Positions 1-56,731 of a stretch of DNA of 56,731 nt are shown here, piece after piece (position 1 is the stretch's first letter; every line of letters begins with the position of its first letter). Location of the stretch: positions 1 through 56,731 of IMG/VR virus record IMGVR_UViG_3300023083_000005; one strand, given 5' to 3'. The translations under genes were made by a program, and so were the position numbers. This DNA is from a virus. The notes under the pieces were generated by a model. That model saw only the letters and a list, made by a program, of their open reading frames with translations. It ran no database searches and was not told the origin of the DNA.

Positions 1-127
1 GAGGGGCCCGGGGCGCACCTCCATGCGTCTCTCGCCTTTATTTCGGTGTCAGGTGACCCCATATGTAAAATTTTGGCCCGATTTTTTACACGTTTGGCCC
101 ATGTGTAAAATTTTTTGCCATTTTTTC
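1..127. repeat. Terminal direct repeat, copy 1 (identical to 56605..56731); circular-assembly overlap or short DTR
   Basis: Read directly: gaggggcccggggcgcacc...gccattttttc occurs at both window ends, 127 nt, no mismatch seen. Confidence 0.95.
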
Positions 128-6753: not shown

Positions 6754-7689
6754 ATGACGAAAACTACGCTGCTCAAAGAGTCCACCGCGACTCCACTGGC
6801 TAAGTCAGGTAACCACTGGCGGGCCGTGCTTGTCACACCCGGCAAGGGTTCCAGCGGCACGTACTCGGAAGCTATGCTCAAAGAGTATGGCCCCAAGGCG
6901 TTCCCCAAGGGAACCCATTCCTACGTCGGCCACCCCAACAGTGAATACGAACAGCGCGACCCTAAGAACCTCATGGGCGTTCTCGCTGAGGATGCTTACT
7001 GGGAAGAGGGTGTAGGCGTCGTCGGCAAGCTCGACATTATGCCCCACTGGAAAGACTTTGTGGAGGCTGTTGCCCCCCACACCGGCCTGTCCATCTACGC
7101 AATGGGCAGCGGCAATGACGAGAGTGGTGAAATGGTGGTCGAGTCCTTGATTCCTGCCATTGACAACTCAGTAGACCTCGTGAGCTACCCGGGTCGCCCC
7201 GGTAGTGGCCTAGCCGAGAAACTTTACGAGAGTGCACGTCGCGCTTTCGTTGAAAAACGTACCGAAGATGTTTCGGGCGGGAAAGAAGGAAATGACATGA
7301 CAGTAGAGGAACAGCTTGCAAAGCTGACCACTCTTGTTACTGAGTTTATTTCCGAAAGCAAGGAAGCCGCTGCAAAGCTGGTTCAGGAACAGGCTAACGC
7401 GGCTACGGCTGCTGACGAAGTGAGCGTAAAGGTGAAGGCGACTATTGAAGCGCTTGAGCTTGTTCACGATGCCAAGCTTTCTGACCCGCTTGAGGCTGAA
7501 CTTGTTTCGGCAGTAGAAGCCGGTAACACCGACGTCAAGCCGCTCATCGAGCGCGCTAAGGGCATCGAGAAGGCTATCGCGGAATCGCTCTCCAAGAACG
7601 ATGACGAGAATCTTCGCATCAACGAATCGTCCGATAAGTCCAAGGCTACCAAGCTTTCGGGCCTGAGCATCTTTGCAGGTGACAAGTAA
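6754..7689 (+). CDS. capsid maturation protease fused to scaffolding domain (putative)
   Basis: N-terminal about 165 aa resembles HK97-type prohead protease (THSYVGHP ... GLSIYAMG). The C-terminal half is Ala/Glu/Lys-rich coiled coil. The gene lies between portal and capsid. Confidence 0.6.
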   Translation: MTKTTLLKESTATPLAKSGNHWRAVLVTPGKGSSGTYSEAMLKEYGPKAFPKGTHSYVGHPNSEYEQRDPKNLMGVLAEDAYWEEGVGVVGKLDIMPHWKDFVEAVAPHTGLSIYAMGSGNDESGEMVVESLIPAIDNSVDLVSYPGRPGSGLAEKLYESARRAFVEKRTEDVSGGKEGNDMTVEEQLAKLTTLVTEFISESKEAAAKLVQEQANAATAADEVSVKVKATIEALELVHDAKLSDPLEAELVSAVEAGNTDVKPLIERAKGIEKAIAESLSKNDDENLRINESSDKSKATKLSGLSIFAGDK

Positions 7690-8072
7690 TGGCTCTCAAT
7701 CACGCGATTGTCTTCGACAACACGTACCCCCTGCCCGCCCCTGCTACCGTTGACGGCGGCGAGGTCTTCCTCGTCGGTGGCATCGTAGCTGTCGCGCAGT
7801 ACCCCGCAACTCAGGGTGAAATCGCTGGCGCTGCTGGCCTCCAGACGGTAGGATACCTTCACGGCATCCACCGCTTCACGGCTGGCACCGGAGCTATCAC
7901 CGTGGGACAGCCCGTGTATATCACGACCTCGACCGCTGGTGCTGGCACCACGACCGTGACCACGACCGCTGCGTCGGGAACTTTCATTGGCTACGCCGTA
8001 GAGCCTAAGGCTTCTGCTGCTGGCCCTGTCTGGGTTCTCATCGTACAGGGTGCCCCGAAGGTAGGAAGCTAA
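7689..8072 (+). CDS. DUF2190-like head decoration/cement protein (putative)
   Basis: 127 aa Gly/Ala/Thr-rich beta protein immediately upstream of the major capsid gene; pattern recalled from the DUF2190 family. Confidence 0.45.
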   Translation: MALNHAIVFDNTYPLPAPATVDGGEVFLVGGIVAVAQYPATQGEIAGAAGLQTVGYLHGIHRFTAGTGAITVGQPVYITTSTAGAGTTTVTTTAASGTFIGYAVEPKASAAGPVWVLIVQGAPKVGS

Positions 8073-10357: not shown

Positions 10358-11617
10358 ATGGCTACCTACACAACACCGTCGAACACCCTTACACCGTCAG
10401 GTGACAACAATGACGGCGGGGCTGGAATCAGCCTCGGTATGGTTGTCGTCGCCACCTCTACGGGGATAACAGCAACTGGCTTGCGCTGGTGGGCACCCGT
10501 GGCTGGTGCGACGATCAGCCCGTTCCTCCAGAATACAGCGGGCACAGTGCTGGCCACCGGCAGCAGTATCACAGCCGCGTCAGGCTGGAACAACCTGCCA
10601 TTTACAAGCCCCTTTGCAATGACGCAAAGCACGCTCTACATGGTGGGCGTCTTCCAGCCTTCTACTCAGCGCTATTCGGCAGTGAGTGGTGCCCTTACGG
10701 GAAACATCGTCAACGGCCCCATCACCATTGACGCCTCGACCGGCTCTGCTGGTCGCTACAACTACTCAGGCACGGCAGGATTGATCTACGGATCGTTCGC
10801 CAATACCGCATGGTTCGGTGTAGACCTAGTTGCCACGGACGCTGCTGCTGGTTTCACGGGCAATATCTCTTTCACTGGTACTGGCACCCTCGGACTTGCA
10901 GGAACGCCCTCAGTGGCCCGCACAGCGGCCTTCTCAGGTACCGGCACGCTCGGCTTCACCGGCAAGCCTACGGCCTCTGGTTCGGTCACCCTCAGTGGCA
11001 CCGGGACGCTAGGACTGACGGGCAACCCCGGTGTGGCTCGCACCCTCGCGCTCAGTGGCACGGGAACCCTCGGACTCACGGGCGCACCCTCCGTAGCCAG
11101 AGCGCTTGCCCTGAGCGGTACTGGTACGCTGACCACGACGTTTAGCATGGGTGCTTCTGGTGCGCTCGGTCTGAGCGGTGCCGGTACTCTGTCGTTCGGT
11201 ACTCCCGTAAGCTACAACGGCAGTGTCGCGCTCAGCGGTGCGGGCACACTCGCCCTGTCGGGTAAGCCGGGGTTCAGCGCTGCACTGGGGCTGTCTGGTT
11301 CTGGCGCGCTAGCCCTGTCGGGTAAGCCTAGCTTTATCGCGGCCCTCGGCCTGTCCGGTTCGGGAACCCTGACGCTGACTGGCAAGGCCTCACTGATCGC
11401 AGTGCTAGACCTGTCAAGCGAAGGCACACTTGACACCAGCGCGTCAACGTCATTCAGTGGTGCGGTCGAATTCTCAGGTTCGGGAAGCTTGATCTTGCGC
11501 ACCGAGGCTGGCCTGTATCGCTACTACTACTGGACTGGCACCGACGATATCCCCGCCGATATCGCGTACTGGAACGGTACCACAGAGTTGCAAGTCAATG
11601 CCCGACTCTATCCATGA
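10358..11617 (+). CDS. DUF4082-like N-terminal domain protein with about 12 tandem 17-aa Gly/Thr/Leu repeats (possible head fibre/decoration)
   Basis: N-terminus GISLGMVVVATSTGITATGLRWWAP...SGWNNLPFTSPF...LYMVGVF resembles the DUF4082 segment of 36621..38402; repeat unit xLSGTGTLxLTGxPxVARx read directly. Confidence 0.7.
   Translation: MATYTTPSNTLTPSGDNNDGGAGISLGMVVVATSTGITATGLRWWAPVAGATISPFLQNTAGTVLATGSSITAASGWNNLPFTSPFAMTQSTLYMVGVFQPSTQRYSAVSGALTGNIVNGPITIDASTGSAGRYNYSGTAGLIYGSFANTAWFGVDLVATDAAAGFTGNISFTGTGTLGLAGTPSVARTAAFSGTGTLGFTGKPTASGSVTLSGTGTLGLTGNPGVARTLALSGTGTLGLTGAPSVARALALSGTGTLTTTFSMGASGALGLSGAGTLSFGTPVSYNGSVALSGAGTLALSGKPGFSAALGLSGSGALALSGKPSFIAALGLSGSGTLTLTGKASLIAVLDLSSEGTLDTSASTSFSGAVEFSGSGSLILRTEAGLYRYYYWTGTDDIPADIAYWNGTTELQVNARLYP
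10850..11500 (+). repeat. In-frame tandem repeat region (51-nt / 17-aa period) inside CDS 10358..11617
   Basis: Repeated LSGTGTLGLTG / LSGSGALALSG units in the translation. Confidence 0.8.
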
Positions 11618-32255: not shown

Positions 32256-32326
32256 GTGGACTGGCGGGAATCGAACCCACGTCCCTGCCCGACTTAGGGC
32301 CGCTCTTCCGATTGAGCTACAGTCCG
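32256..32326 (-). pseudogene. tRNA-like element / degenerate tRNA (no canonical anticodon arm)
   Basis: Acceptor (6 bp + C1:A72 mismatch), D arm GCTC-AATCGGAA-GAGC and T arm GTGGG-TTCGATT-CCCGC fold normally. The 21-nt central segment GGCCCTAAGTCGGGCAGGGAC gives only 4-bp stems with 6- or 9-nt loops. Confidence 0.55.
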
Positions 32327-34474: not shown

Positions 34475-34609
34475 TTACTTTGCCTCCGTCTGTTTGTCAA
34501 TCCACGCGACTACTGCCAACGCTTCTGCGTACTGTCTTCCATGCGGAATGTTAGGCCAGTCTTTCACACTGGTCAGCACTTCCGCAATAGCGTTTACACG
34601 CTTATCCAT
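34475..34609 (-). CDS. hypothetical protein (44 aa)
   Basis: Internal ATG of track ORF 34475..34723; GGAG upstream. Confidence 0.4.
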   Translation of the reverse strand: MDKRVNAIAEVLTSVKDWPNIPHGRQYAEALAVVAWIDKQTEAK

Positions 34610-35222
34610 AAAGTTTTTCTCCGTTCTTGTAGACCTCGCCACCCCAGACACCATCGGCCTGATTGTCACCCTCGTTGAGCTTGGCCCCGTACGCTGCACA
34701 CTGCTCCAGAATGGGACAGCCATAGCAGAGTTTCATTGCCTGTACTACGGTCGGTGGTCGGTCTTCTGGGTAGTCCATGTACGGCCCGGGGTTGCCCTCG
34801 CATTTTGGCCGCGACCTGTCAACCTCGTCTACCCTATCGACTTGGAAGTTTAGCTCATCACTCAGCTTAGCCGCGTCGGGTTCGAGTTTCAAGTATTGCA
34901 GTGGGTCTTTTTTGGCCATTTCAATACCCGATTCCCTCGCATGACGTTCGGCATAGTGCTGCCGTTTTTCCTCGACTGTCATACTAGCACGTTTTTTGCG
35001 TGACCATTCACGCCAGTAGTCTACGTGCTTCTGTGCATTGTCCTTACGGTACTGTGCGATCTTGTCTTTCGCGCGCTCCCGGTAGGCTGCGTCTGCCGCT
35101 TTCTTGCACTTCCTACAGAACCTGACAGGGGCTGGGGTGCTGCCTTTTTTCCAGCCGGTATTTTCCTCGGTGAACTTGTGGCCCTTAGCGCATCTTTCAA
35201 CCAGTTTTCTTGTGTCTACCAC
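34602..35222 (-). CDS. WhiB-domain protein with N-terminal zinc-ribbon and basic linker
   Basis: C-terminus C-x22-C-x2-C-x5-C (KCEGN...LCYGCPILEQC) followed by GVWGG; N-terminus CAKGH...CRKC; GTG start. Confidence 0.7.
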   Translation of the reverse strand: MVDTRKLVERCAKGHKFTEENTGWKKGSTPAPVRFCRKCKKAADAAYRERAKDKIAQYRKDNAQKHVDYWREWSRKKRASMTVEEKRQHYAERHARESGIEMAKKDPLQYLKLEPDAAKLSDELNFQVDRVDEVDRSRPKCEGNPGPYMDYPEDRPPTVVQAMKLCYGCPILEQCAAYGAKLNEGDNQADGVWGGEVYKNGEKLYG

Positions 35223-36620: not shown

Positions 36621-38402
36621 TTACAGGGTGATTTTGTAGTTGTGGTGCGTTGCTTCTGACGCAAACGTGTCAGTGAATTTTCCACCGGTCACGGTCAGCG
36701 TTCGGGATTCTCCCAGCACTTCCACGGTCGTTCCGGTGACGCCAGCGGGGAGCGTAAAGGTTTTGCTACCCGTAGAGCCGTCCGTCATGGCGAAGATGTA
36801 TGCGCTACCATCTTTCACCTTGAGCATGGTGTCAAGCCCTGCGCCAAAGTTCCAGACGTAGGACTGCGTGTTGAGGACTGGTGCCAGCGCCTGAACAGCC
36901 GCGTTTACTGCCGTCACCTTGGCAATGTTCGGCCCGGTGATCAGCGAGTACGTGCCGCTGCCGTCGTTGCTGTGCTGGAAGTACAGCACCCCAGCCGCCC
37001 CGTGGATGATGGAATTCCACACGGCACCCTCGATCTGTGCCCCGGTGATTACCTTGGCTCCAGACTCGATCAGGATGGGCTTAGCCGTTTCCACGAATAC
37101 CCAGTTGGGCTTAGTGTGGTTGGAGAATTTTTCCATCTGGTCTTGCTGCCAACCGTATGCACCAGCCGATGCCGCAGCCTTGCCGGTTGACAGGAATGCG
37201 TCAGAACGGTTGAACTCATAGTTGACAGCCGGTGAGGTGTATGCATATTTATCGACGCTTGTCAAGTCATCGACCGCAACATACTGGGGCATGGTGCCGG
37301 GTGCCCAGAATGTTTCAAGCACGCCGTTGCCGTAGTTGGTATTGATAAACCGACCGTCGTTTTTCGCACGCGCACTAGCTACGTCTGCCTTGTGCTGAGC
37401 TAGGCGTGCGGCATCTGTCGGATAGCTGCCGTTCATTTCGATTTCGTCGTCCGTGTGCCAGCCTACGACACCCGCAGTTGATCCGACTTCGGCGCTCGTC
37501 CACTCAAGCTGAGCGATTACAGACACGCCCAGACCGGTGATGCTGGTGATTGCCGAGCCGTCATGCTCAGCGCCAAGATACGTGTTGATCCCTGCTGCCT
37601 TGAGTTGCCCTGCATGCGAGGGCTTGCCAAAGTACACAGCAATGGGGAAGAATGCCGGGTTAGTCCACCCCGCAGCTACCGCCTTGGAAAACTGCTGGTA
37701 GTAGGAAGGCCCACCATACCACGGCTTGCGCGGCAGGTTGAGAATTCCTGTAGTGGGATTTGTTGGCGTCGTCGCACCGGTCGCTTCGAATTCCACATCG
37801 GCAAAATAGTTGGCGTTGGATTCGTTGACAGGATAGCCACCGTTTGCGCCGTACAGGTAGCGCCCACGCTTGGCGACAAGCTGACCGGCAGTGACCGGGG
37901 AGGCAAGTGCCCCGCTCGTGGCGCTGTAGCGTCCCTGAGGGGCGAAATAGGAAACCACGTAGTCAGTGCCAGCCACCACATCTACGGGCGTAGAGAGGGC
38001 AGCAGACTGCCAACCAGAGGCGGTTTCGTTGGCGTACGTGACCTCTGCCAGCTTCACACCGGCAGTTGACCACAGTCGGCCAAGATGAGTGCCACCATTT
38101 GCAGCGGCACCCTTGTAGAACTTGAGCGCATGGATTTTTCCATTGACGCTCGGGCTGAACCGGGTGCCAAGCTCAATCGGTACCGTGTCGGCATCGGTCA
38201 GGTTGGTGGGCACGAGGTTGGAGAAAATTGACGCAGTGACGACAACCGGAGGATCGACTGGAGGATCGACTGGCGGTTCCTCCGTGTCATTTTCTTCCAG
38301 AGCTTCTACACGTTCCAGAAGATCGGCGTTAGCCTCTTCCAGATTTTCAACGCGCTCTGAAAGTTCCTCAAACTCAGCGTTTGTAGGGACATTTGCTGGC
38401 AT
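36621..38402 (-). CDS. coiled-coil / Pro-rich linker / DUF4082 domain protein with large C-terminal domain (possible glycan hydrolase or binding domain)
   Basis: ATG 38402 with GAAAGG RBS. The DUF4082-like segment reads LGTRFSPSVNGKIHALKFYKG...GRLWS...SGWQSAALSTPVDVVAGTDYVVSYFAPQGRY. The hydrolase idea is a guess. Confidence 0.65.
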   Translation of the reverse strand: MPANVPTNAEFEELSERVENLEEANADLLERVEALEENDTEEPPVDPPVDPPVVVTASIFSNLVPTNLTDADTVPIELGTRFSPSVNGKIHALKFYKGAAANGGTHLGRLWSTAGVKLAEVTYANETASGWQSAALSTPVDVVAGTDYVVSYFAPQGRYSATSGALASPVTAGQLVAKRGRYLYGANGGYPVNESNANYFADVEFEATGATTPTNPTTGILNLPRKPWYGGPSYYQQFSKAVAAGWTNPAFFPIAVYFGKPSHAGQLKAAGINTYLGAEHDGSAITSITGLGVSVIAQLEWTSAEVGSTAGVVGWHTDDEIEMNGSYPTDAARLAQHKADVASARAKNDGRFINTNYGNGVLETFWAPGTMPQYVAVDDLTSVDKYAYTSPAVNYEFNRSDAFLSTGKAAASAGAYGWQQDQMEKFSNHTKPNWVFVETAKPILIESGAKVITGAQIEGAVWNSIIHGAAGVLYFQHSNDGSGTYSLITGPNIAKVTAVNAAVQALAPVLNTQSYVWNFGAGLDTMLKVKDGSAYIFAMTDGSTGSKTFTLPAGVTGTTVEVLGESRTLTVTGGKFTDTFASEATHHNYKITL

Positions 38403-38461
38403 AAAACAACCTTTCCATAGGTGGATTTTGCAAAACTTCACGCACCACCTTAGCATGGAAA

Positions 38462-41227: not shown

Positions 41228-42628
41228 TCAAGCCGAGACTTTTTGGAGGATGCTCAGGCCCGAGCGAACGAATGCGAATCCACCCAGTACGTCCTTATCG
41301 AAATCTTCGCTCATTTCGGGAGCCTTGAGCCAGCTTGACAGCGAACCGTCAGCCAGAACCTCGCCCACGTCACGGAAGTGGTTGACCCACGTCGCCTCGC
41401 CGTCATCCACCAGACCCGCGCCGGTGTTGCTCATTTCGCCCCACCAGTGAAGCATAGCGGCCAGCCCCTGAGGTGTCGTCTGTCCCTGATAGTCACCATC
41501 GTGGTCGAGGACATAAAACCGGTCGTCAAACGAACCACCCATGACCATAGAAGCGGAATCCTCGTCCACGGTTGACCCGGGAACGTCAGTGCGCCAGTTG
41601 TTGTTCTCATCGAACCAACCGTCAGGATCGTCACCGTATCCGTCGTCACCGGTCATCCACGCCTCGGCCCATGCGCGCTCAGCATCGGTGCGCGGGCTTG
41701 CCCATCCACCAGACGCGGGGACTGTACCCTCAGCGGGCACCGTAGCGGGCAGGGCGGGCTGTTCGGGCGTGAAGCCAGTTGTGGTGCTTGCGGCTGGCAG
41801 AGCCTTCTGAGTAGGCGTGTGGCTCGTCGCAGAAGCCTTGACTGCCGTCGTGCTGGTCGCGTTTCCGTGACCGCCCGACGTGGCGTTGCGCCATGTGGGG
41901 TTGTACCGACGCGCAGCACGATCCCAGTCTAGGTCTTCGTGCTGGAATGCCTTGGCATTGGTAATGGTCAGGTAGTCGCCGTCTTGCAGGTCAGCGAACG
42001 GCTTGGGCCATGTACCGAACCAGCGGATGCCGACACGCTTGAGTGCCTTGGCGAGAATGCTGTCGGTCGATGCGAAGACGAAAGACCCATCCTCAAGGCG
42101 TGCGATAGACACGGGGGAGTGGTTCAGGCGCGACAGGTGAATGGTGTTACCCGTCTGGGTGTCGAACCATGCGAGGGCAGCGTCACCACCGATCAGCGAG
42201 AATCCTTCGGTGCCGTACTCGGACAGCATTTCAGCCGCAACCGACGAGTCAACCTCGGGCAGTTGACTGCCATTTGTCAGGATTGCCCGCACGCTGTCAT
42301 GATTGAACAGAACGCCGTTGTGTACCAGCGTGATTCGCTTGTCGATGCTCGGCAGCGGGTGGTTGTTGTCGTTCACCTCAACCGGGCCGTGGGTTGCGAA
42401 ACGGGTGTGCATGATCACGCTGTCAGCCTTGCGGGGCAGCCCCTTTAGCTCAAGCTGTGAGCCGGGTACAGCCGCCTTGAACATGCCGGTTGCGCCGTTT
42501 CGGGTGGCGTAGGCGTATCCGCTGGCATGGGTGCCCCGAACCTCGCCCTCACTCAGCAGTGCATTGGCCAGTTCGCGTGCGTTGATCTTGGAGCCTTCTG
42601 CAAGGCTGAATCCGGTGATTGAACAGAT
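41228..42628 (-). CDS. class-II (Ntn) glutamine amidotransferase domain protein with about 220-aa C-terminal extension; apparent ATC start
   Basis: Nucleophile context (I)CSITGF, then MHTRFATHG...NNHP, HNGVLFN, EVDSSV. The ORF-track ATG (42484) would delete the catalytic Cys. AAGGAG lies 6 nt upstream of ATC-TGT. Confidence 0.7.
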   Translation of the reverse strand: MCSITGFSLAEGSKINARELANALLSEGEVRGTHASGYAYATRNGATGMFKAAVPGSQLELKGLPRKADSVIMHTRFATHGPVEVNDNNHPLPSIDKRITLVHNGVLFNHDSVRAILTNGSQLPEVDSSVAAEMLSEYGTEGFSLIGGDAALAWFDTQTGNTIHLSRLNHSPVSIARLEDGSFVFASTDSILAKALKRVGIRWFGTWPKPFADLQDGDYLTITNAKAFQHEDLDWDRAARRYNPTWRNATSGGHGNATSTTAVKASATSHTPTQKALPAASTTTGFTPEQPALPATVPAEGTVPASGGWASPRTDAERAWAEAWMTGDDGYGDDPDGWFDENNNWRTDVPGSTVDEDSASMVMGGSFDDRFYVLDHDGDYQGQTTPQGLAAMLHWWGEMSNTGAGLVDDGEATWVNHFRDVGEVLADGSLSSWLKAPEMSEDFDKDVLGGFAFVRSGLSILQKVSA

Positions 42629-42767
42629 GATATTCTCCTTTGTTAGTTCTGAAAGTGTTAGTGGGGCGCAAGGTCGTATTCCCTTGCGCCCCCGGTGGGT
42701 GCGAGTCTGACTCGCAATTAGCTAGTCCATTGCTCCACTAGAACCACCTCTTGCTGCGAGCTTACCC

Positions 42768-44243
42768 CTAGACTTCGCCCCCGGCAAGTACCAGTTCGGA
42801 CATACGGGCCGAGAAGTTGATCGGCTCGTTCTTCGTGAACATGGCCTCAATGTCCTCGTCAGTGATCGTTGACATGGAATCGTCAACGGTTTCCTTGCCG
42901 TACTTTACGAACAGCTTGTGCAGGTCTTCGAACGAGTTGACCCGGTTCCACTCGGCTTGCTTGACGTTGGCGCGGGCAACGTTCACCAATTCGCGGCAGA
43001 TGTATGCCCACCGGATCAGGTATTCGTAGTCGTAGACCGGGCCCATTGCGCGGAACTCGACGGTACCGTGACGGTTCAGGGCGTTCAGGTTCAGCGAGAG
43101 GTAACGGTCACCGCGCGAAACGTCGTGCTTGGTGGCTGCCGTCTTGCTGGAACGCAGGGTGTCACGAACCGCACCGAGCGAGCGAGGCATGCAGTAGGTG
43201 CGAACCTCGCGCTGGTAGCTCGACGCCAGAAGCGGCTCAATGGCACTGTAGCCGTACGTGAGCGAGCCAAGCTGGCGCGGGGTGAGGTCGTCCACGTCTA
43301 CGTGCACGTGAATGCCGCTCGTGTCGTTCTGCGGCTGCGTGGACAGGTGGGCCGTCAGGCTTTCGAGTCCCTTGGAGTGGAACGAGTGAAGAATGGGCGA
43401 AACGAATTCGCGGCAGTCTGCACTGCGGTCGCCGTCTTCGTACGCACTGCGCAGCGAGCCGTCAGCACGGGAGTCCCAGCCAGCGGGCTTGACCGCGCCA
43501 CGTGCGCCACCGGTTTCTACCTCAATGCCCCAGTTGCGGGAGGAACGGAGGCCGTGAGGCGCAATGGCGAACTTCTCCACGATGCGCTCAACGTTCTCGC
43601 TCTTTTTGTCCATGAGCTTCGTGAAGAATCCGTTGAAGTCGCCGGTACCCGAACGGACAGCCTTGCGCTTCTCGGCTTCCCGTGCCGCGTCAGCGGTCTT
43701 GGAGGCGCGGCGCATGGCTTCGAGCAGTTCTTTCTTGTAAGTGTCTTGCATGGCAATCAGGTAGTACAGCGCGTCAGCCAGCCCAGAGGCCCGCACGCGC
43801 CCGTCAGAGCGCACTGGAACGGTGATCGCGTGGCGCTCCATCACGGAGGTGTGAATGGCTCCCTTGGCAGTCGACGGAACAAGGTGGGCACCCTGTTTGA
43901 TGTAGACGATCCACGGGATGATGCCGATGTTCAGTTCGGCCAGCGCTTCCTTGGGTGACATGTAGTTGTCAACCAGTTCGCTCATGTAGACGCCACCGCG
44001 ACCCAGTTCGAGGCTGAAAGTGCCGTCGTCGGCCTTGTTCACCTTGACCTCGTTGGCGAAGTTGTAGCGGTCGTAGAAGTTCATGGTGGCGATAAACGCC
44101 CGGTACGCGCGTTCGATCTTGCGGGCATCCTTGCCAAGCTGAATGCTGGTCTTGCTGTTGAGCAGCGCCTTGGTAATGCCCCCCTCGTATGCGACACGGG
44201 CGTGCGCTTCGACCAGATTCTGAATGTTGCTCTCGTGACTCAC
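42768..44243 (-). CDS. amidoligase (glutamine-synthetase-like, Amidoligase_2 family)
   Basis: WGIEVETGGARG, ADGSL, EFVSPIL, SGIHVHVD, GTVEFRAM; GTG 44243 preceded by AAGGAGG (the track N-terminal extension was rejected). Confidence 0.75.
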   Translation of the reverse strand: MSHESNIQNLVEAHARVAYEGGITKALLNSKTSIQLGKDARKIERAYRAFIATMNFYDRYNFANEVKVNKADDGTFSLELGRGGVYMSELVDNYMSPKEALAELNIGIIPWIVYIKQGAHLVPSTAKGAIHTSVMERHAITVPVRSDGRVRASGLADALYYLIAMQDTYKKELLEAMRRASKTADAAREAEKRKAVRSGTGDFNGFFTKLMDKKSENVERIVEKFAIAPHGLRSSRNWGIEVETGGARGAVKPAGWDSRADGSLRSAYEDGDRSADCREFVSPILHSFHSKGLESLTAHLSTQPQNDTSGIHVHVDVDDLTPRQLGSLTYGYSAIEPLLASSYQREVRTYCMPRSLGAVRDTLRSSKTAATKHDVSRGDRYLSLNLNALNRHGTVEFRAMGPVYDYEYLIRWAYICRELVNVARANVKQAEWNRVNSFEDLHKLFVKYGKETVDDSMSTITDEDIEAMFTKNEPINFSARMSELVLAGGEV

Positions 44244-44391
44244 TGATACCTCCTTGGTAGATGATGTTGATTGGCTCTGGTTAGAGCTTAGTGCAGTTAT
44301 GCCCCACTGCGCAAGAGAATCTTGCAAATCAAGGGAAGAAATTCCGAGCCGGACTGCGGTTGACGCAACCCTCTCGGGAGTCCAAGGTTCT

Positions 44392-44502
44392 CTAGGCATT
44401 GCCGAACCCGATGTAAGCGCAGATGATCGGCACACACAGGGTGAAGATAGCGGCAAGAATGCCGTCTACACTGGACAGTTCCTTTTTGGCGCGCTCAAGC
44501 AC
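44392..44502 (-). CDS. small membrane peptide (36 aa)
   Basis: AGGAGG + 5 nt + GTG; VLERAKKELSSVDGILAAIFTLCVPIICAYIGFGNA. Confidence 0.45.
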   Translation of the reverse strand: MLERAKKELSSVDGILAAIFTLCVPIICAYIGFGNA

Positions 44503-45612: not shown

Positions 45613-46302
45613 TTACGCCCTCTTTCGCTTTCCGAATACCATCAAGCTACCACCGATGATCGAGAAAAGCAACACCAGAAAAATTGGCGGGAACATGTCA
45701 ATTCCAGTCTCGGCAAGGCGGTTCGGAACTACCTTAGCAGAAACCTGCTCGGTGACCATTTCGGGCACTGTCGGCTCGGCCACGGGAGGAACCACGACAG
45801 GCGGCTCAACTGCGGGCGGGACGACAACCGGGGGCTGCTCCACCGGGGGAACAACCACGGGCGGCTCTTCGACAGGCGGGACGACCACGGGCGGATCAGT
45901 GGGCGGAGCCACAACGGGTGGTTCTACGGGCGGCACGACAACCTCACAGGCTGGCGTAGTCCACACGTACCAGTGCTGCGCGATTCCGTTGTCTTCGCCA
46001 CCGTAGAGCAGACCATCCTCGATCAGCTTGGCAACCTCGGCAGTGGGGTACGAATCGGCTTGGTACTTGACCCCACACTTGAGGCCCGACGTGGGGTTGT
46101 CCCAGAACCCGAGATTTTCACCGGGCACCTGTGCTATGTAGTCCTGAGGTGTCAGGAAAACATCGTCGGTTGTGGAAGTCACCTCCCAGAGTACCGTGGT
46201 CAGGTCGGGCTGCTCGGTTGCCTGTGCCGGGCTAGCGCTAAACGCCACCCCAGCCAGTGCCATTGCCGCGAACGTAGTACTTGCTACTAGAGCTTTTTTC
46301 AT
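45613..46302 (-). CDS. secreted, sortase-anchored (LAETG) cell-wall surface protein with Pro-Val-rich stalk
   Basis: Signal peptide MKKALVASTTFAAMALAGVAFSASPAQA. PPVV/PPVE repeats are followed by LAETG, then the hydrophobic helix IDMFPPIFLVLLFSIIGGSLMVF and a KRKRA tail. Confidence 0.8.
   Translation of the reverse strand: MKKALVASTTFAAMALAGVAFSASPAQATEQPDLTTVLWEVTSTTDDVFLTPQDYIAQVPGENLGFWDNPTSGLKCGVKYQADSYPTAEVAKLIEDGLLYGGEDNGIAQHWYVWTTPACEVVVPPVEPPVVAPPTDPPVVVPPVEEPPVVVPPVEQPPVVVPPAVEPPVVVPPVAEPTVPEMVTEQVSAKVVPNRLAETGIDMFPPIFLVLLFSIIGGSLMVFGKRKRA
45775..45945 (-). repeat. Imperfect in-frame repeats encoding (V/E)PPVV units
   Basis: Seven or more PPV(V/E) units in the translation of 45613..46302. 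Confidence 0.7.
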
Positions 46303-46483
46303 TAGTTCCCCCTTGGGTTTCTATTAGTCGTTTGAGTAGTTCGTTTTTGTACTTCGCTGCGGCGTCCCACTTGGCACTGGCAAGGCTGTAATAGCCAGCA
46401 CGCTCATTGCGATACGCCTGTGTTGCCAACGCCCGATATCGACGCTTGAGCGTTCGTTGACTGAGAAGTGTCAAGTCAATCAT
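46238..46483 (-). CDS. hypothetical protein (81 aa)
   Basis: ORF track; the 3' end overlaps the LAETG gene start by 65 nt, so the true end or reality is uncertain. Confidence 0.45.
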   Translation of the reverse strand: MIDLTLLSQRTLKRRYRALATQAYRNERAGYYSLASAKWDAAAKYKNELLKRLIETQGGTNEKSSSSKYYVRGNGTGWGGV

Positions 46484-46769
46484 TGAGCACCCATTCGAGT
46501 GCTTCTCTGAATCCGAACTTATAGTTTGAGGCCCCCTCAGTGGCCCCTATCTTCGCCTCAATCTCTGCCCGCGTGCGCATGGGCTTCTGCTCTGGTTCGA
46601 TTTCGCCGGGGCGGAAACCGCCCACTGACCCCGAGTTGTCAAAGGCTACGATCAGGTAGCCGTCAACCGTATCACGGACGACTTCACCCGGGCCACCGTA
46701 GTTCTGGCTACCGTAGTGCATGTTGGTCGCCTTGAGTTGTACCCGGTCGCCAACTTTGTGGTCAGTCAT
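46476..46769 (-). CDS. GDRV-barrel family paralog P10 (97 aa)
   Basis: KVGDRVQLK...GEVVRD and C-terminal FREALEWVLND. Confidence 0.65.
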   Translation of the reverse strand: MTDHKVGDRVQLKATNMHYGSQNYGGPGEVVRDTVDGYLIVAFDNSGSVGGFRPGEIEPEQKPMRTRAEIEAKIGATEGASNYKFGFREALEWVLND

Positions 46770-47025
46770 CAATGAACCTCGTTTCTGTGAGCTTGCGAGC
46801 GGCTGCGCTCATTCGATCTGTGATCAACCTTACCTGCTCGTAGCTGGCAAGCGCAACCCTTTCGTCATATTCTTCTACGAAATAATTGTCGCTCTGGTAC
46901 GCCTCGTTGTATCCGTCAGCAATCGCCTGAGCGTGCGACTTGAACGGGGCAGAGTCCACGACTGACTCGTGATAGACGCCGTTCGTCTGAGTGTAGCGAC
47001 GTACCTTGACCAGCCATTTAGTCAT
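46762..47025 (-). CDS. hypothetical protein (87 aa)
   Basis: ATGA overlap with the upstream gene (track start 47037). Confidence 0.55.
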   Translation of the reverse strand: MTKWLVKVRRYTQTNGVYHESVVDSAPFKSHAQAIADGYNEAYQSDNYFVEEYDERVALASYEQVRLITDRMSAAARKLTETRFIDD

Positions 47026-47831
47026 GAGAGAATCCACTCCAACTCTTCGATAGCGAGCCGGGACAGGCCACTAGCCGGGGCTGAGCGGTACTGTTCAAGG
47101 CGTGCGTTCACCTCTTCCCGGGTACGGCGAATCGGCGGCAGGGCGGGCGCGGGCGGCGCTGGGGCGGTTGACGTTGTTGCGTCAATCAAGTCTAGGCTGG
47201 AAGGAAGCCAACGGTAAGACTCTGTACCCGAACCGCGAGAGGTGTCAAAAGCAACCCGTATAGTCGAGCGCCCGCTGACGGCACTATATTCTGACAAAAC
47301 ATCGTTCACAGTCCCTTCCGCACCAACCCAAGAGCGGCTTCGTTGAGTAGATTGGTTTACCCGCACCCGGTCACCCACGCGGAATTCACCGGGCGCCCGA
47401 ACCTCGACAGGTGTTGGCGTCGGTGTGTCAATCACGGACAGGCTGCGTTCGTAGAAACGCCATTCTGCGCCGTTGTCCATGCTGATGACCCACAATTTTT
47501 CAGTGCTGGATTCATAGTGGACTCGAACGAGAGTGCCAATCTCTCCACGGTAGCCTCTGCTGGCTGTCTCGTTGATCTGAACGCGATCACCCTCGCGCAT
47601 CTGTCGTACTAGCGGGAGTGCGGCGGGTGGGGTGGGGTTGGGGGTTGCCGGTTCAGTGATCAGGTCAAGGCGGTATTGGAAATACGTGCCGTTGCGGTTG
47701 TCGCCCCAGTCAACCGTGACCAAGTAATCAGGGTCACCGCTTTCGACGTGCCGCACAACACCTTCAAGCCCTCGATGCCCAATGTCAATTCTGTCATTGC
47801 CGCGAACTCGGTCGCCTACGCTGTACGGCAT
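47022..47831 (-). CDS. GDRV-barrel family paralog P9 (269 aa, three modules)
   Basis: SVGDRVRGN, EGDRVQIN, RVGDRVRVN; C-terminus LAIEELEWILS. Confidence 0.7.
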   Translation of the reverse strand: MPYSVGDRVRGNDRIDIGHRGLEGVVRHVESGDPDYLVTVDWGDNRNGTYFQYRLDLITEPATPNPTPPAALPLVRQMREGDRVQINETASRGYRGEIGTLVRVHYESSTEKLWVISMDNGAEWRFYERSLSVIDTPTPTPVEVRAPGEFRVGDRVRVNQSTQRSRSWVGAEGTVNDVLSEYSAVSGRSTIRVAFDTSRGSGTESYRWLPSSLDLIDATTSTAPAPPAPALPPIRRTREEVNARLEQYRSAPASGLSRLAIEELEWILS

Positions 47832-48247
47832 CAGTCGTCATCCTCGTCTTCGTCGTAATACTCGTCGGGTTCTGATGCCTCGGTGTCAAGATCGTCAGGC
47901 GTGGCCTCTGCGCGGCGCAGTGCGCCGATAACCCATTGAAGCTCTTCGATGATGACCAGAACAGCCACCGTCTTGTTCGGCAACGCCTCATACATGGCAA
48001 GGCGTGCCTCGACCTCGCTGGGCGTCTTGGGTTCAACAGGGCCAGCCATTTCAATCTGGCTGACGTACACGCCTCGATCAAATGGGCCGTCATCACCCGA
48101 AACGTAATCGTCACGGTTGGGTGTGTCGCGGTTGTAGAACATGACGCGCGTGACAGTGAATTCCTCCCCGATGTGAGAGTGCAAAGAAGTTTGGCGGCTC
48201 GAATTCACAACGCGAACTCGATCACCTATCGAAAAAGCATGAGGCAT
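47831..48247 (-). CDS. GDRV-barrel family paralog P8 (138 aa) with poly-acidic tail
   Basis: SIGDRVRVV; VIIEELQWVIGAL; tail EPDEYYDEDEDDD. Confidence 0.7.
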   Translation of the reverse strand: MPHAFSIGDRVRVVNSSRQTSLHSHIGEEFTVTRVMFYNRDTPNRDDYVSGDDGPFDRGVYVSQIEMAGPVEPKTPSEVEARLAMYEALPNKTVAVLVIIEELQWVIGALRRAEATPDDLDTEASEPDEYYDEDEDDD

Positions 48248-48502: not shown

Positions 48503-49156
48503 TCAGCCGAGCAGGGTCAATACCCAATTCAATTCTTCTACCACGACTTTCTTGGCCAGCGTGTCAGGCGCGGCGGCATAGGCGTCCCGCTTCTCAGCTA
48601 CCAGCAACTTGAGTTGCGAAGGCGTGGCTGGTTCGACGTTGACGAACTCAAAGCTCTCGAAACTGGCGTGCCAGTCAAAGCCGTTGGGCGACTCGACGTA
48701 CATGACTCCCGGGTCGTCCCAGCTTGTCGTGTCCATAGGGATAACCCGCGTCACCGTGTGTTCAGTGCCGACCGCTGACCCGCCCGTGTCAAGCGTGATG
48801 CGGATGCGGTCGCCCACCTGTGCGTCAGTCGTCGCGCGAGGGCGGTACGGCTCAACTGTGGGCGGCTGGGTGGCGATCACGTCACCGGCGAAGGTGACAA
48901 CATCGTGGTTTTCTTCGGTGTCGTCTTCTGACAGCAGAGCGTCAAGTTCAGCGTCAAGGACTGCCGTTGATTCCGGGTTGTCAACCACATAGCACGTGTT
49001 GTGAGCGTACCAATGGTCGCCAGTGAAATTGTCCCGATCTGCACCCCGGTAGTGTACTCCATCGGTTAGCACCTCAGTGACAGTACCATAACCTCCCGCT
49101 ACGGTTGCCCCCTGAAAAGTGATAATCCTGATTCTGTCTCCCACTACTGCGGTCAC
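48503..49156 (-). CDS. GDRV-barrel family paralog P7 (217 aa, two modules)
   Basis: VVGDRIRII and QVGDRIRIT; C-terminus VVVEELNWVLTLLG. Confidence 0.7.
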   Translation of the reverse strand: MTAVVGDRIRIITFQGATVAGGYGTVTEVLTDGVHYRGADRDNFTGDHWYAHNTCYVVDNPESTAVLDAELDALLSEDDTEENHDVVTFAGDVIATQPPTVEPYRPRATTDAQVGDRIRITLDTGGSAVGTEHTVTRVIPMDTTSWDDPGVMYVESPNGFDWHASFESFEFVNVEPATPSQLKLLVAEKRDAYAAAPDTLAKKVVVEELNWVLTLLG

Positions 49157-49476
49157 AGTGCAAGCACCCCCTCAAGTTCCTCGATCACGGCTTTCACGGC
49201 GACAGTGGGATTCTCCACTGACTTGTAAGCGTCAATGCGCTTCTGGATTTTGGCGCGCAAGGTGCGTGCGTCACCGCGTTTTGGCTTGGCGGGCTTGACC
49301 AACTCCATTGCGTCGTTGTAGTAGTTGTTGGTGTAGTCGTTACCGTCAAGCTGTACCGTGCTGACCCCGCCCCTCTCGAATGCGTTGTAATTATCGTTGG
49401 GCCTGACGACGACACCCTCACGGCCCATAGCGCCACCGTCAGTCATGCGGACTCTGTCTCCTGCTGCGAATGTCAT
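49153..49476 (-). CDS. GDRV-barrel family paralog P6 (107 aa)
   Basis: MTFAAGDRVRM; C-terminus ENPTVAVKAVIEELEGVLAL; ATGA overlaps. Confidence 0.75.
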   Translation of the reverse strand: MTFAAGDRVRMTDGGAMGREGVVVRPNDNYNAFERGGVSTVQLDGNDYTNNYYNDAMELVKPAKPKRGDARTLRAKIQKRIDAYKSVENPTVAVKAVIEELEGVLAL

Positions 49477-49811
49477 AGTGACAATACCCCTTCCAACTCT
49501 TCGATTACTGCCTTGACTGCGACTGTCGGATTCTCAATCGCCTTGTACGCTTCGATGCGCTTGGCGATCTTACCCCGCAGCGAGCGGGCATCGTTCTTGG
49601 GCGGCTTAGCGGGCTCAATCAGAACCAACTGATTTGTGTAAAAACGGTTTGTTTCAACGCGGTTGCCGTTCAAGTTATCGTCGAAACGAATCTCTGTCAC
49701 GGGGCGGCTGTAGTCTGGAACGAGTGGATCAACCACCACACCTGTGCGGTTCTCCCAAGAGCTTTCGTAGCCCTGTCGTACGGTAACCCGATCACCGATT
49801 GCAAACGTCAT
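49473..49811 (-). CDS. GDRV-barrel family paralog P5 (112 aa)
   Basis: MTFAIGDRVTV; C-terminus ENPTVAVKAVIEELEGVLSL. Confidence 0.75.
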   Translation of the reverse strand: MTFAIGDRVTVRQGYESSWENRTGVVVDPLVPDYSRPVTEIRFDDNLNGNRVETNRFYTNQLVLIEPAKPPKNDARSLRGKIAKRIEAYKAIENPTVAVKAVIEELEGVLSL

Positions 49812-50200
49812 AGCGACAACGCCCCTTCCAGTTCTTCGATGATCGACCGGACGGCCACGGTGGGGTTCTCGATTGACTTGTACGCGTCAAGGCTCTTGGT
49901 CAGCTTGGCTCGCAGGTTGCGCCGATCCTTGCGGTTGTCGGCGGGCGTACCTTCGATTATGCGCGGAATGAGCGCAATGTCGTCGTACGGAACGCGGGGA
50001 AAATGCGTAAAGTCACCACCGTCCACAGTTGTGCCACCCGTGTACACCGAAACGTTGCCACTGAACGTGTCAACGCTGTAGATGAGTCCAATCTGTCCGA
50101 TTGCTGCCGTCTGTCCGTAATCGGTTCTGTGCGGCGCAAGGAAGCGGATGGGCGCACCTGACATGAATCCCTCAGGCCGCTGCGTGCGTGTTCTTGGCAT
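49808..50200 (-). CDS. family paralog P4 (130 aa)
   Basis: AAGGAGG RBS before ATG 50200; C-terminus ENPTVAVRSIIEELEGALSL. Confidence 0.7.
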   Translation of the reverse strand: MPRTRTQRPEGFMSGAPIRFLAPHRTDYGQTAAIGQIGLIYSVDTFSGNVSVYTGGTTVDGGDFTHFPRVPYDDIALIPRIIEGTPADNRKDRRNLRAKLTKSLDAYKSIENPTVAVRSIIEELEGALSL

Positions 50201-56604: not shown

Positions 56605-56731
56605 GAGGGGCCCGGGGCGCACCTCCATGCGTCTCTCGCCTTTATTTCGGTGTCAGGTGACCCCATATGTAAAATTTTGGCCCGATTTTTTACACGTTTG
56701 GCCCATGTGTAAAATTTTTTGCCATTTTTTC
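56605..56731. repeat. Terminal direct repeat, copy 2 (identical to 1..127)
   Basis: Exact repeat of window start. Confidence 0.95.

Follow-up and report, generated by a model that had tools for sequence, protein, structure and literature searches.

Why would a phage that looks non-integrating carry, in the same arm as its replication genes, a gene for a protein that seems designed for covalent attachment to the cell wall of its host? This question is raised by a 56,731-nucleotide stretch of viral DNA (IMG/VR record IMGVR_UViG_3300023083_000005, positions 1 to 56,731), which is called the window throughout. An earlier note on this DNA had described a gene product with a Sec signal peptide ending in AQA, a globular domain of roughly 95 residues with two Cys residues, a Pro/Val-rich stalk with at least seven PPV units, the motif LAETG, a hydrophobic helix and a KRKRA tail. 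All of these parts could be located, with the domain delimited as a 92-residue passenger and the count of PPV units rising to nine. Two sequences serve as references for what follows, namely L001, a 56.2-kb syntenic relative of the window with 67-84% nucleotide identity along the arm, and P0003, the corresponding L001 protein. The features of the locus are these:

45613..46302, minus strand: whole LAETG protein gene, 229 codons plus a TAA stop at 45613-45615; predicted phage-encoded surface protein
46308..46314, minus strand: strong Shine-Dalgarno-like AAGGGGG, separated by 5 nt from the ATG at 46300-46302; kept in L001
46219..46302, minus strand: signal-peptide-like N-terminus, residues 1-28 (MKK, hydrophobic core, AQA followed by TE)
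45943..46218, minus strand: passenger domain, residues 29-120, acidic, with Cys76 and Cys119; assigned by sequence to an undescribed family
45757..45942, minus strand: Pro/Val-rich stalk, residues 121-182, with 9 PPV units and only a low-complexity match to Extensin_1
45718..45756, minus strand: stalk-to-motif linker, residues 183-195 (VTEQVSAKVVPNR), conserved in P0003
45703..45717, minus strand: LAETG sorting pentapeptide, residues 196-200, read from the sequence
45631..45702, minus strand: hydrophobic membrane-retention segment, residues 201-224 (24 aa), peak hydropathy 2.53
45616..45630, minus strand: basic tail KRKRA, residues 225-229, read from the sequence
46238..46483, minus strand: upstream 81-aa gene, conserved, matching phrog_2227 (E=1.3e-5); its last 65 nt overlap the signal-peptide codons in another frame

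The first 28 residues comprise MKK, an 18-aa hydrophobic core and SASPAQA followed by TE, with a net charge of +2, and are termed signal-peptide-like here on the basis of inspection and of their recurrence across a family of related proteins. The 92-residue passenger carries a net charge of -12 and the only two Cys residues of the protein, and the stalk is 39% Pro and 37% Val. The highest Kyte-Doolittle value of any 15-residue window in the entire protein (2.53) falls within the hydrophobic segment. An identical protein (P0001) is encoded on a 56,745-bp contig. The start of the upstream 81-aa gene shares an ATGA overlap with the gene that precedes it. This gene extends 65 nt into the LAETG gene, so that the ribosome-binding site and the codons for the signal peptide are dual-coding, and both the overlap arrangement and the end point are the same in L001. 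The possibility that the 81-aa reading frame is spurious was ruled out by its synonymous-change conservation in L001 and by its match to phrog_2227. A scan for promoters and terminators around the LAETG gene yielded nothing above background.

The first and last 127 nt of the window (1..127 and 56605..56731) are identical, which indicates a circular assembly with a k-mer overlap and a complete genome of about 56.6 kb. Among large terminases, that of Clavibacter phage CN1A (Cinunavirus) is the closest to the window's, at about 60% identity, followed by those of Microbacterium and Arthrobacter phages at about 36%, and on this sequence evidence the window phage is a distant relative of CN1A. CN1A is also the closest deposited phage, with a similar size (56.8 kb) and the same two-arm layout, but it lacks both an early-arm protein with a sorting signal and the amidoligase/GATase block described below, and its ends differ from those of the window in being 952-bp terminal repeats. 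Megablast searches with 24 kb of the window against 50,697 GenBank phages returned nothing. Genes on the plus-strand arm encode the capsid, tail tube and tail, whereas those on the minus-strand arm include a DUF3987 primase-helicase, SSB, ERF, WhiB, an SNF2 helicase and an Amidoligase_2/GATase pair. No integrase or recombinase domain was found in any window ORF of at least 250 aa, which bears out an observation of the earlier note and makes the phage look non-integrating. The presence of WhiB and the relatedness to CN1A point to an actinobacterial host, probably one within Micrococcales.

Several other features of this genome deserve mention in their own right. The WhiB protein (34602..35222, minus strand) is 206 aa long with the WhiB domain confined to its C-terminal third, and proteins of comparable length with a WhiB domain are encoded by L001 (210 aa) and L007 (196 aa). 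The Amidoligase_2 protein (562 aa) and the class II glutamine amidotransferase (418 aa) are encoded at 41228..44456 (minus strand), downstream of the LAETG gene, and the pair is conserved in L001 and not annotated in CN1A. A functional tie between the LAETG gene and this pair was considered and rejected because other loci of the family lack the pair. Two DUF4082 proteins are present, one of 611 aa in the replication arm (36621..38456, minus strand) and a paralogue of 419 aa directly after the capsid gene (10358..11617, plus strand). The larger one has a coiled-coil N-terminus, no signal peptide, a C-terminal part that weakly resembles Glyco_hydro_42 and a PPVDPPVDPPVVV linker, so that the PPVDPPV-type linker reported earlier for this protein is real. 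Its gene is missing from the syntenic L001 and is therefore an insertion. Runs of small paralogous genes occupy 46476..48247 and 49153..50200 (both minus strand). Several of their products start with (V/I)GDRV(R/Q)(V/L) and end in an LEW(V/I)L-like tail, a 269-aa protein of these runs has three such repeats with weak matches to KOW, Phage_Gene47 and the MS_channel beta-domain, and each of the three genes at 49153-50200 also matches the L001 counterparts of the other two. A tRNA-like gene found by ARAGORN between the primase and SSB genes (32256..32326, minus strand) has an abnormal two-base anticodon, and normal tRNA-Asn and tRNA-Trp genes are located at 2635-2845.

What the protein might display is a matter of its passenger, and here relatives were drawn from searches of 5.8 billion and 1.84 billion proteins. 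An iterated HMM finds a passenger domain of about 86 aa in 40 of the 81 proteins retrieved, and the passenger of the window matches the HMM of these 40 proteins at 111 bits (E ~1e-34) with both conserved Cys residues present. The family consensus is VxWxxP..GG..VTWPQ..CGxxYQxDxY..L.ADG.L..GED..W.F....C. Conserved columns of the alignment (A1) include W11, Q25, C48, Q53, D55, Y57, L71, D76 and C91, of which C48 and C91 are at least 90% conserved. Most family members have a Pro-rich stalk, several carry additional N-terminal domains, and the C-terminus of 37 of the 40 is built from an L-x-x-T-G type motif (LAxTG in 31), a hydrophobic segment and then a basic tail.

Known families offer no counterpart. 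The passenger has no match in Pfam, NCBIfam, PHROGs or PADLOC (0 families of PADLOC-DB at E <=0.01), the sole Pfam match of the whole protein is the low-complexity one to Extensin_1, and no named relative appears among the matches in the 5.8 billion proteins. The tblastn searches of the 50,697 GenBank phages with the whole protein, the passenger or a "classical" family passenger returned nothing even at E <=1. The domain is also absent from the window phage's own tail proteins, where a receptor mimic was looked for. An AlphaFold2 model built from a 38-sequence alignment has a pLDDT of 93 and a pTM of 0.83, with four strands and one helix. When PDB sequences were searched with a profile of the passenger, nothing was found, and Foldseek searches of PDB and BFVD with the model gave best matches at E 0.05-0.07 and TM <=0.46, which were rejected as a basis for fold assignment because they are fn3-like noise. 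Thus, as judged by sequence, the passenger defines an undescribed family of LAxTG-anchored proteins, and its predicted fold, which is modeled with confidence, is without a match in PDB or BFVD.

Whether these proteins are truly sortase substrates can be approached through their C-termini. The last 48 aa of the LAETG protein score 17.6 bits (E=0.0046) against the NCBIfam model TIGR01167 (LPXTG_anchor), above its curated cutoff of 15.9 bits, whereas the whole protein with its low-complexity stalk scores 12.8 bits and falls below it. Among 35 family tails, this model matches 27, NF058582 (Microco_LAVTG) matches 23 and NF041528 (strep_LAETG) matches 11. A rule that combines L[APVS]x[TAS]G with a hydrophobic stretch and a basic tail flags the LAETG gene alone among 289 six-frame window ORFs of at least 60 aa and flags one ORF in each related locus, and it flags no ORF in the 24 kb of phage CN1A that was scanned. 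A signal-peptide-like N-terminus with AxA followed by TE recurs across the family, and in L001 the start codon, signal peptide and anchor are all conserved in syntenic position. The view expressed earlier that LAxTG is the variant used by class E sortases has published support, as LAXTG is the recognition signal of these enzymes, which are the housekeeping sortases of Actinobacteria and are used for surface display, and LAETG is a motif that has been modeled in the SrtE1 active site (PMC5148588). All of the computational tests that were run agree, and they support the identification of the LAETG protein as a phage-encoded sortase substrate of the class E (LAxTG) type. No sortase domain was detected in any ORF scanned, including ten smaller ORFs of the minus-strand arm, so a host enzyme would be needed. 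Clavibacter, the host of the nearest cultured relative, has a functional sortase (PMC10501053).

These same data must be weighed against a simpler proposal, in which the product is a type I membrane protein that is retained by its helix and KRKRA tail, with LAETG remaining unprocessed in the host. The subthreshold score of the whole protein and the lack of a sortase among the scanned phage ORFs would both fit such a protein. However, the motif stands at a constant spacing before the hydrophobic segment in the 37 members that have it and has been kept although the tails are highly diverged (28% mean column identity). Further arguments against mere membrane retention are that the isolated tail passes the curated cutoff, that family tails match three actinobacterial sortase-signal models and that the housekeeping sortases of Actinobacteria belong to class E. 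We consider membrane retention without sorting to be very unlikely, and the protein is discussed below as a predicted sortase substrate.

Other members of the family were examined in their genomic contexts. All 14 loci examined besides the window are phage, prophage or phage-like, although the scans behind this association used strict patterns and the contexts sampled are modest in number. The loci, all of which encode full proteins with a signal peptide, domain, stalk and LAxTG motif, are as follows:

L004, 57.7-kb contig: family gene ~3.5 kb downstream of holin and endolysin genes
L005/L006, 59.9-kb contig: terminase, ParB and HNH
L007: WhiB, ERF and PrimPol-DUF3987
L008: gene order integrase, HTH, HTH, HNH, family gene
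L018: gene order holin, integrase, CI/Cro-like HTH pair, family gene
L014, IMG/VR viral contig: integrase 2.4 kb upstream of the family gene and DNA methylase downstream
L019: M23 peptidase gene and densely packed small ORFs
L020: densely packed small ORFs, phage-like only
L009 and L011-L016: seven IMG/VR viral contigs, among them the L014 given above

In L008 and L018, where strands could be read, the family gene lies on the same strand as the integrase and Cro-like HTH genes and downstream of them. An HNH endonuclease gene is located directly upstream of the LAxTG gene in L008 (2819-3226) and in L016 (~7190-7700), where it is in frame. These are two unrelated temperate relatives, and the HNH protein could have a role in cassette movement.

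The occurrence of the family bears on whether the gene could be a host surface-protein gene that was recently captured and has no phage-specific role, with its phage association being a sampling artifact. Most family members reside on short metagenomic contigs and the genome scans used narrow peptide patterns, two points in favor of such an artifact. A pattern scan of 185,579 species-representative genomes (596 Gb) gave a single match, in Pseudactinotalea suaedae (Micrococcales), and this match is identical to the IMG/VR prophage L011. The same method identified seven loci in IMG/VR, and this disparity, together with the fact that the one genomic match is a prophage and that phage-type contexts were seen in every additional locus, runs counter to recent capture. 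The pattern for the query's own subgroup found nothing in the 185,579 species genomes, and a search for related IMG/VR loci with the single LAETG protein as the query likewise returned nothing. L001 also carries the gene at the equivalent position, with synonymous substitutions across the signal-peptide and anchor codons, and family members are present in the more distant L007 and L012, which share replication genes with the window (CN1A has none). Therefore, a captured host gene without a phage function seems to us highly improbable. The earlier note had called such a protein unusual for a lytic-looking phage, and this holds in the sense that the family is absent from the 50,697 deposited phage genomes; the judgment needs tempering, however, because the family recurs in uncultured actinophages, temperate ones included.

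The most informative comparison is the one with L001. Its nucleotide match to the window runs through the signal-peptide codons to 46235, resumes at 45948 and then continues from 45755 onward, which leaves 45949-46234 of the window uncovered. Over codons 1-30 of the LAETG gene the two are 80% identical in nucleotide sequence. At the protein level, the 28-residue signal peptide of P0003 is 71% identical to that of the window and the anchor is closely similar, and the synonymous changes in these two parts indicate that both are under selection. The passenger of P0003 has no match to the family HMM (E 0.7), with only a weak CG.YQ.D...DG...W...C-EV resemblance to the family at that value. A homologue search with this passenger found none, and its single-sequence AlphaFold model is poor (pLDDT 49). 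It could have the same fold in a hyper-diverged form, or it could be another domain. The reverse situation is found in L008 and L009, which share only 45946-46257 with the window, and these differ in GC content (59% for L008 and 68% for L009, versus 56% for the window). Because L001 keeps the scaffold with a non-matching passenger, and L008 and L009 share the passenger only, the arrangement is that of a scaffold with a horizontally exchanged head. On this comparison of sequences, the LAETG protein joins an exchangeable passenger to a conserved display scaffold made up of the signal peptide, the stalk and the anchor. Proteins that take part in phage-phage or phage-host conflicts typically show modular turnover of this kind.

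How might such a protein act? The explanation we consider best, with a probability of roughly 45%, is that the product is an early surface protein, anchored by a host sortase, that masks a receptor or blocks the adsorption or entry of competing phages. The gene lies in a long leftward operon with replication genes and is therefore probably made early in infection, a timing suggested by its position in the replication arm. In the infected actinobacterial cell, Sec would export the protein, and the host's housekeeping class E sortase would then cut between the Thr and Gly of LAETG and link the product to lipid II and subsequently to peptidoglycan, as expected from sortase biology. The stalk of about 60 residues would span the wall and hold the acidic two-Cys domain at or beyond its surface. 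The phage would thus supply only the substrate. There, the displayed domain might mask a wall receptor or otherwise exclude competing phages, and perhaps surface remodeling would also keep progeny from being lost on debris. The placement in an early operon and the fast turnover of the passenger favor a role in conflict, and exclusion or receptor masking is proposed by analogy with proteins that other phages make early and expose at the surface, such as the T5 lipoprotein Llp. Some observations sit less comfortably with exclusion. Display on the wall through sortase is not immediate, and a lytic cycle may leave little time for it. Also, searches of PDB and BFVD revealed no sequence or structural relative of the passenger that would point to a receptor or ligand, and searches of PHROGs and PADLOC revealed no similarity to known exclusion or defense proteins.

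The architecture invites comparison with proteins that act in adhesion. A stalk, a distal domain and a wall anchor are what one sees in Gram-positive adhesins, and the additional N-terminal domains of several relatives are reminiscent of fibrillar adhesins. Perhaps, then, the protein is a sortase-anchored adhesin or aggregation factor, a conversion moron like SasX that changes cell-cell or cell-substrate adhesion and either keeps infected cells near fresh hosts or benefits lysogens in temperate relatives. SasX, a prophage-borne LPXTG surface protein of staphylococci, provides a precedent, and many family members do lie within integrase-bearing elements. The two cases are alike in that a mobile, phage-carried gene encodes a sortase-anchored surface protein, but the resemblance is one of kind only. 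SasX belongs to Firmicutes, has an LPXTG signal and is temperate-phage cargo that acts in colonization, whereas the LAETG protein has an LAETG signal and is encoded in the replication-arm operon of an integrase-free actinophage. The absence of an integrase from the window phage speaks against such a role, and in L008 and L018 the gene sits within a string of genes after a Cro-like HTH gene with no separate promoter evident. Furthermore, the strongly acidic 92-aa passenger is unlike any known adhesin fold. We regard an adhesin role as unlikely and continue to prefer receptor masking or exclusion by a wall-anchored early protein.

It is also conceivable that the protein acts on the wall within the phage's own cycle, whether by titrating sortase or lipid II, by adjusting lysis timing through binding of a wall polymer or by tethering progeny. 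In this regard, L004 comes from an unrelated phage in which the family gene lies downstream of the holin and endolysin genes, and the conserved polar and acidic residues Q53, D55, Y57 and D76 (A1 numbering) might together bind a ligand or metal. However, the gene is far from lysis genes and inside early or replication regions in the window and most relatives, and fast passenger exchange is not expected of a housekeeping step in the phage cycle. Such a function is distinctly unlikely in our estimation. The reading of the LAETG protein as an exclusion or masking factor can be extended to a broader proposal, which is that actinophages, including non-integrating ones, use a phage-specific wall-display cassette with an interchangeable passenger of new fold as an inter-phage exclusion or receptor-masking device, with a conserved signal peptide, Pro/Val stalk and LAxTG anchor that would hijack the host's housekeeping sortase early in infection. 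We put this forward only tentatively and regard it as doubtful in its full scope.

Known systems resemble the LAETG protein in part. Chromosomal class E substrates, such as the LAXTG-anchored chaplins ChpA-C of Streptomyces, share its predicted signal peptide, LAxTG motif, hydrophobic segment, basic tail and actinobacterial setting, but the LAETG protein is phage-encoded and its passenger is unrelated to chaplins or to described families. A functional analogy is proposed with T5 Llp, a lipoprotein of a lytic phage that blocks the phage's own receptor, and with Ltp of Streptococcus thermophilus phage TP-J34, both of them small phage-encoded proteins that are exported and tethered at the surface, as is predicted for the LAETG protein. 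Llp and Ltp are lipoproteins, whereas the LAETG protein lacks a lipobox Cys (SPAQA is followed by TE, and Cys occurs only at 76 and 119) and its predicted tether is peptidoglycan. Searches of PHROGs and PADLOC gave no indication of homology to either. No paper on LAETG or LAXTG proteins encoded naturally by phages, or on LPXTG proteins of actinobacteriophages, came to light in full-text literature searches, and neither did a peptidoglycan-tethered phage exclusion factor.

Prophage LPXTG cargo in Firmicutes and lipoprotein exclusion factors in phages were already known. What is new here is a class E type signal in an integrase-free actinophage, its placement in the replication arm, a new passenger family and the exchange of cassettes. 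Members of the family occur repeatedly in uncultured actinophages and prophages but not in the 50,697 deposited genomes, Pfam, PHROGs or structure libraries, and the passenger has moved among unrelated phages, whereas the scaffold has not. Should wall anchoring and an effect on phage susceptibility be borne out, the protein would represent a new mechanism class by which phages edit Gram-positive surfaces and would be the Gram-positive, peptidoglycan-tethered equivalent of lipoprotein exclusion factors like T5 Llp. It would then also make receptor biology in Microbacteriaceae-type hosts accessible to testing and provide a natural display scaffold for actinobacteria.
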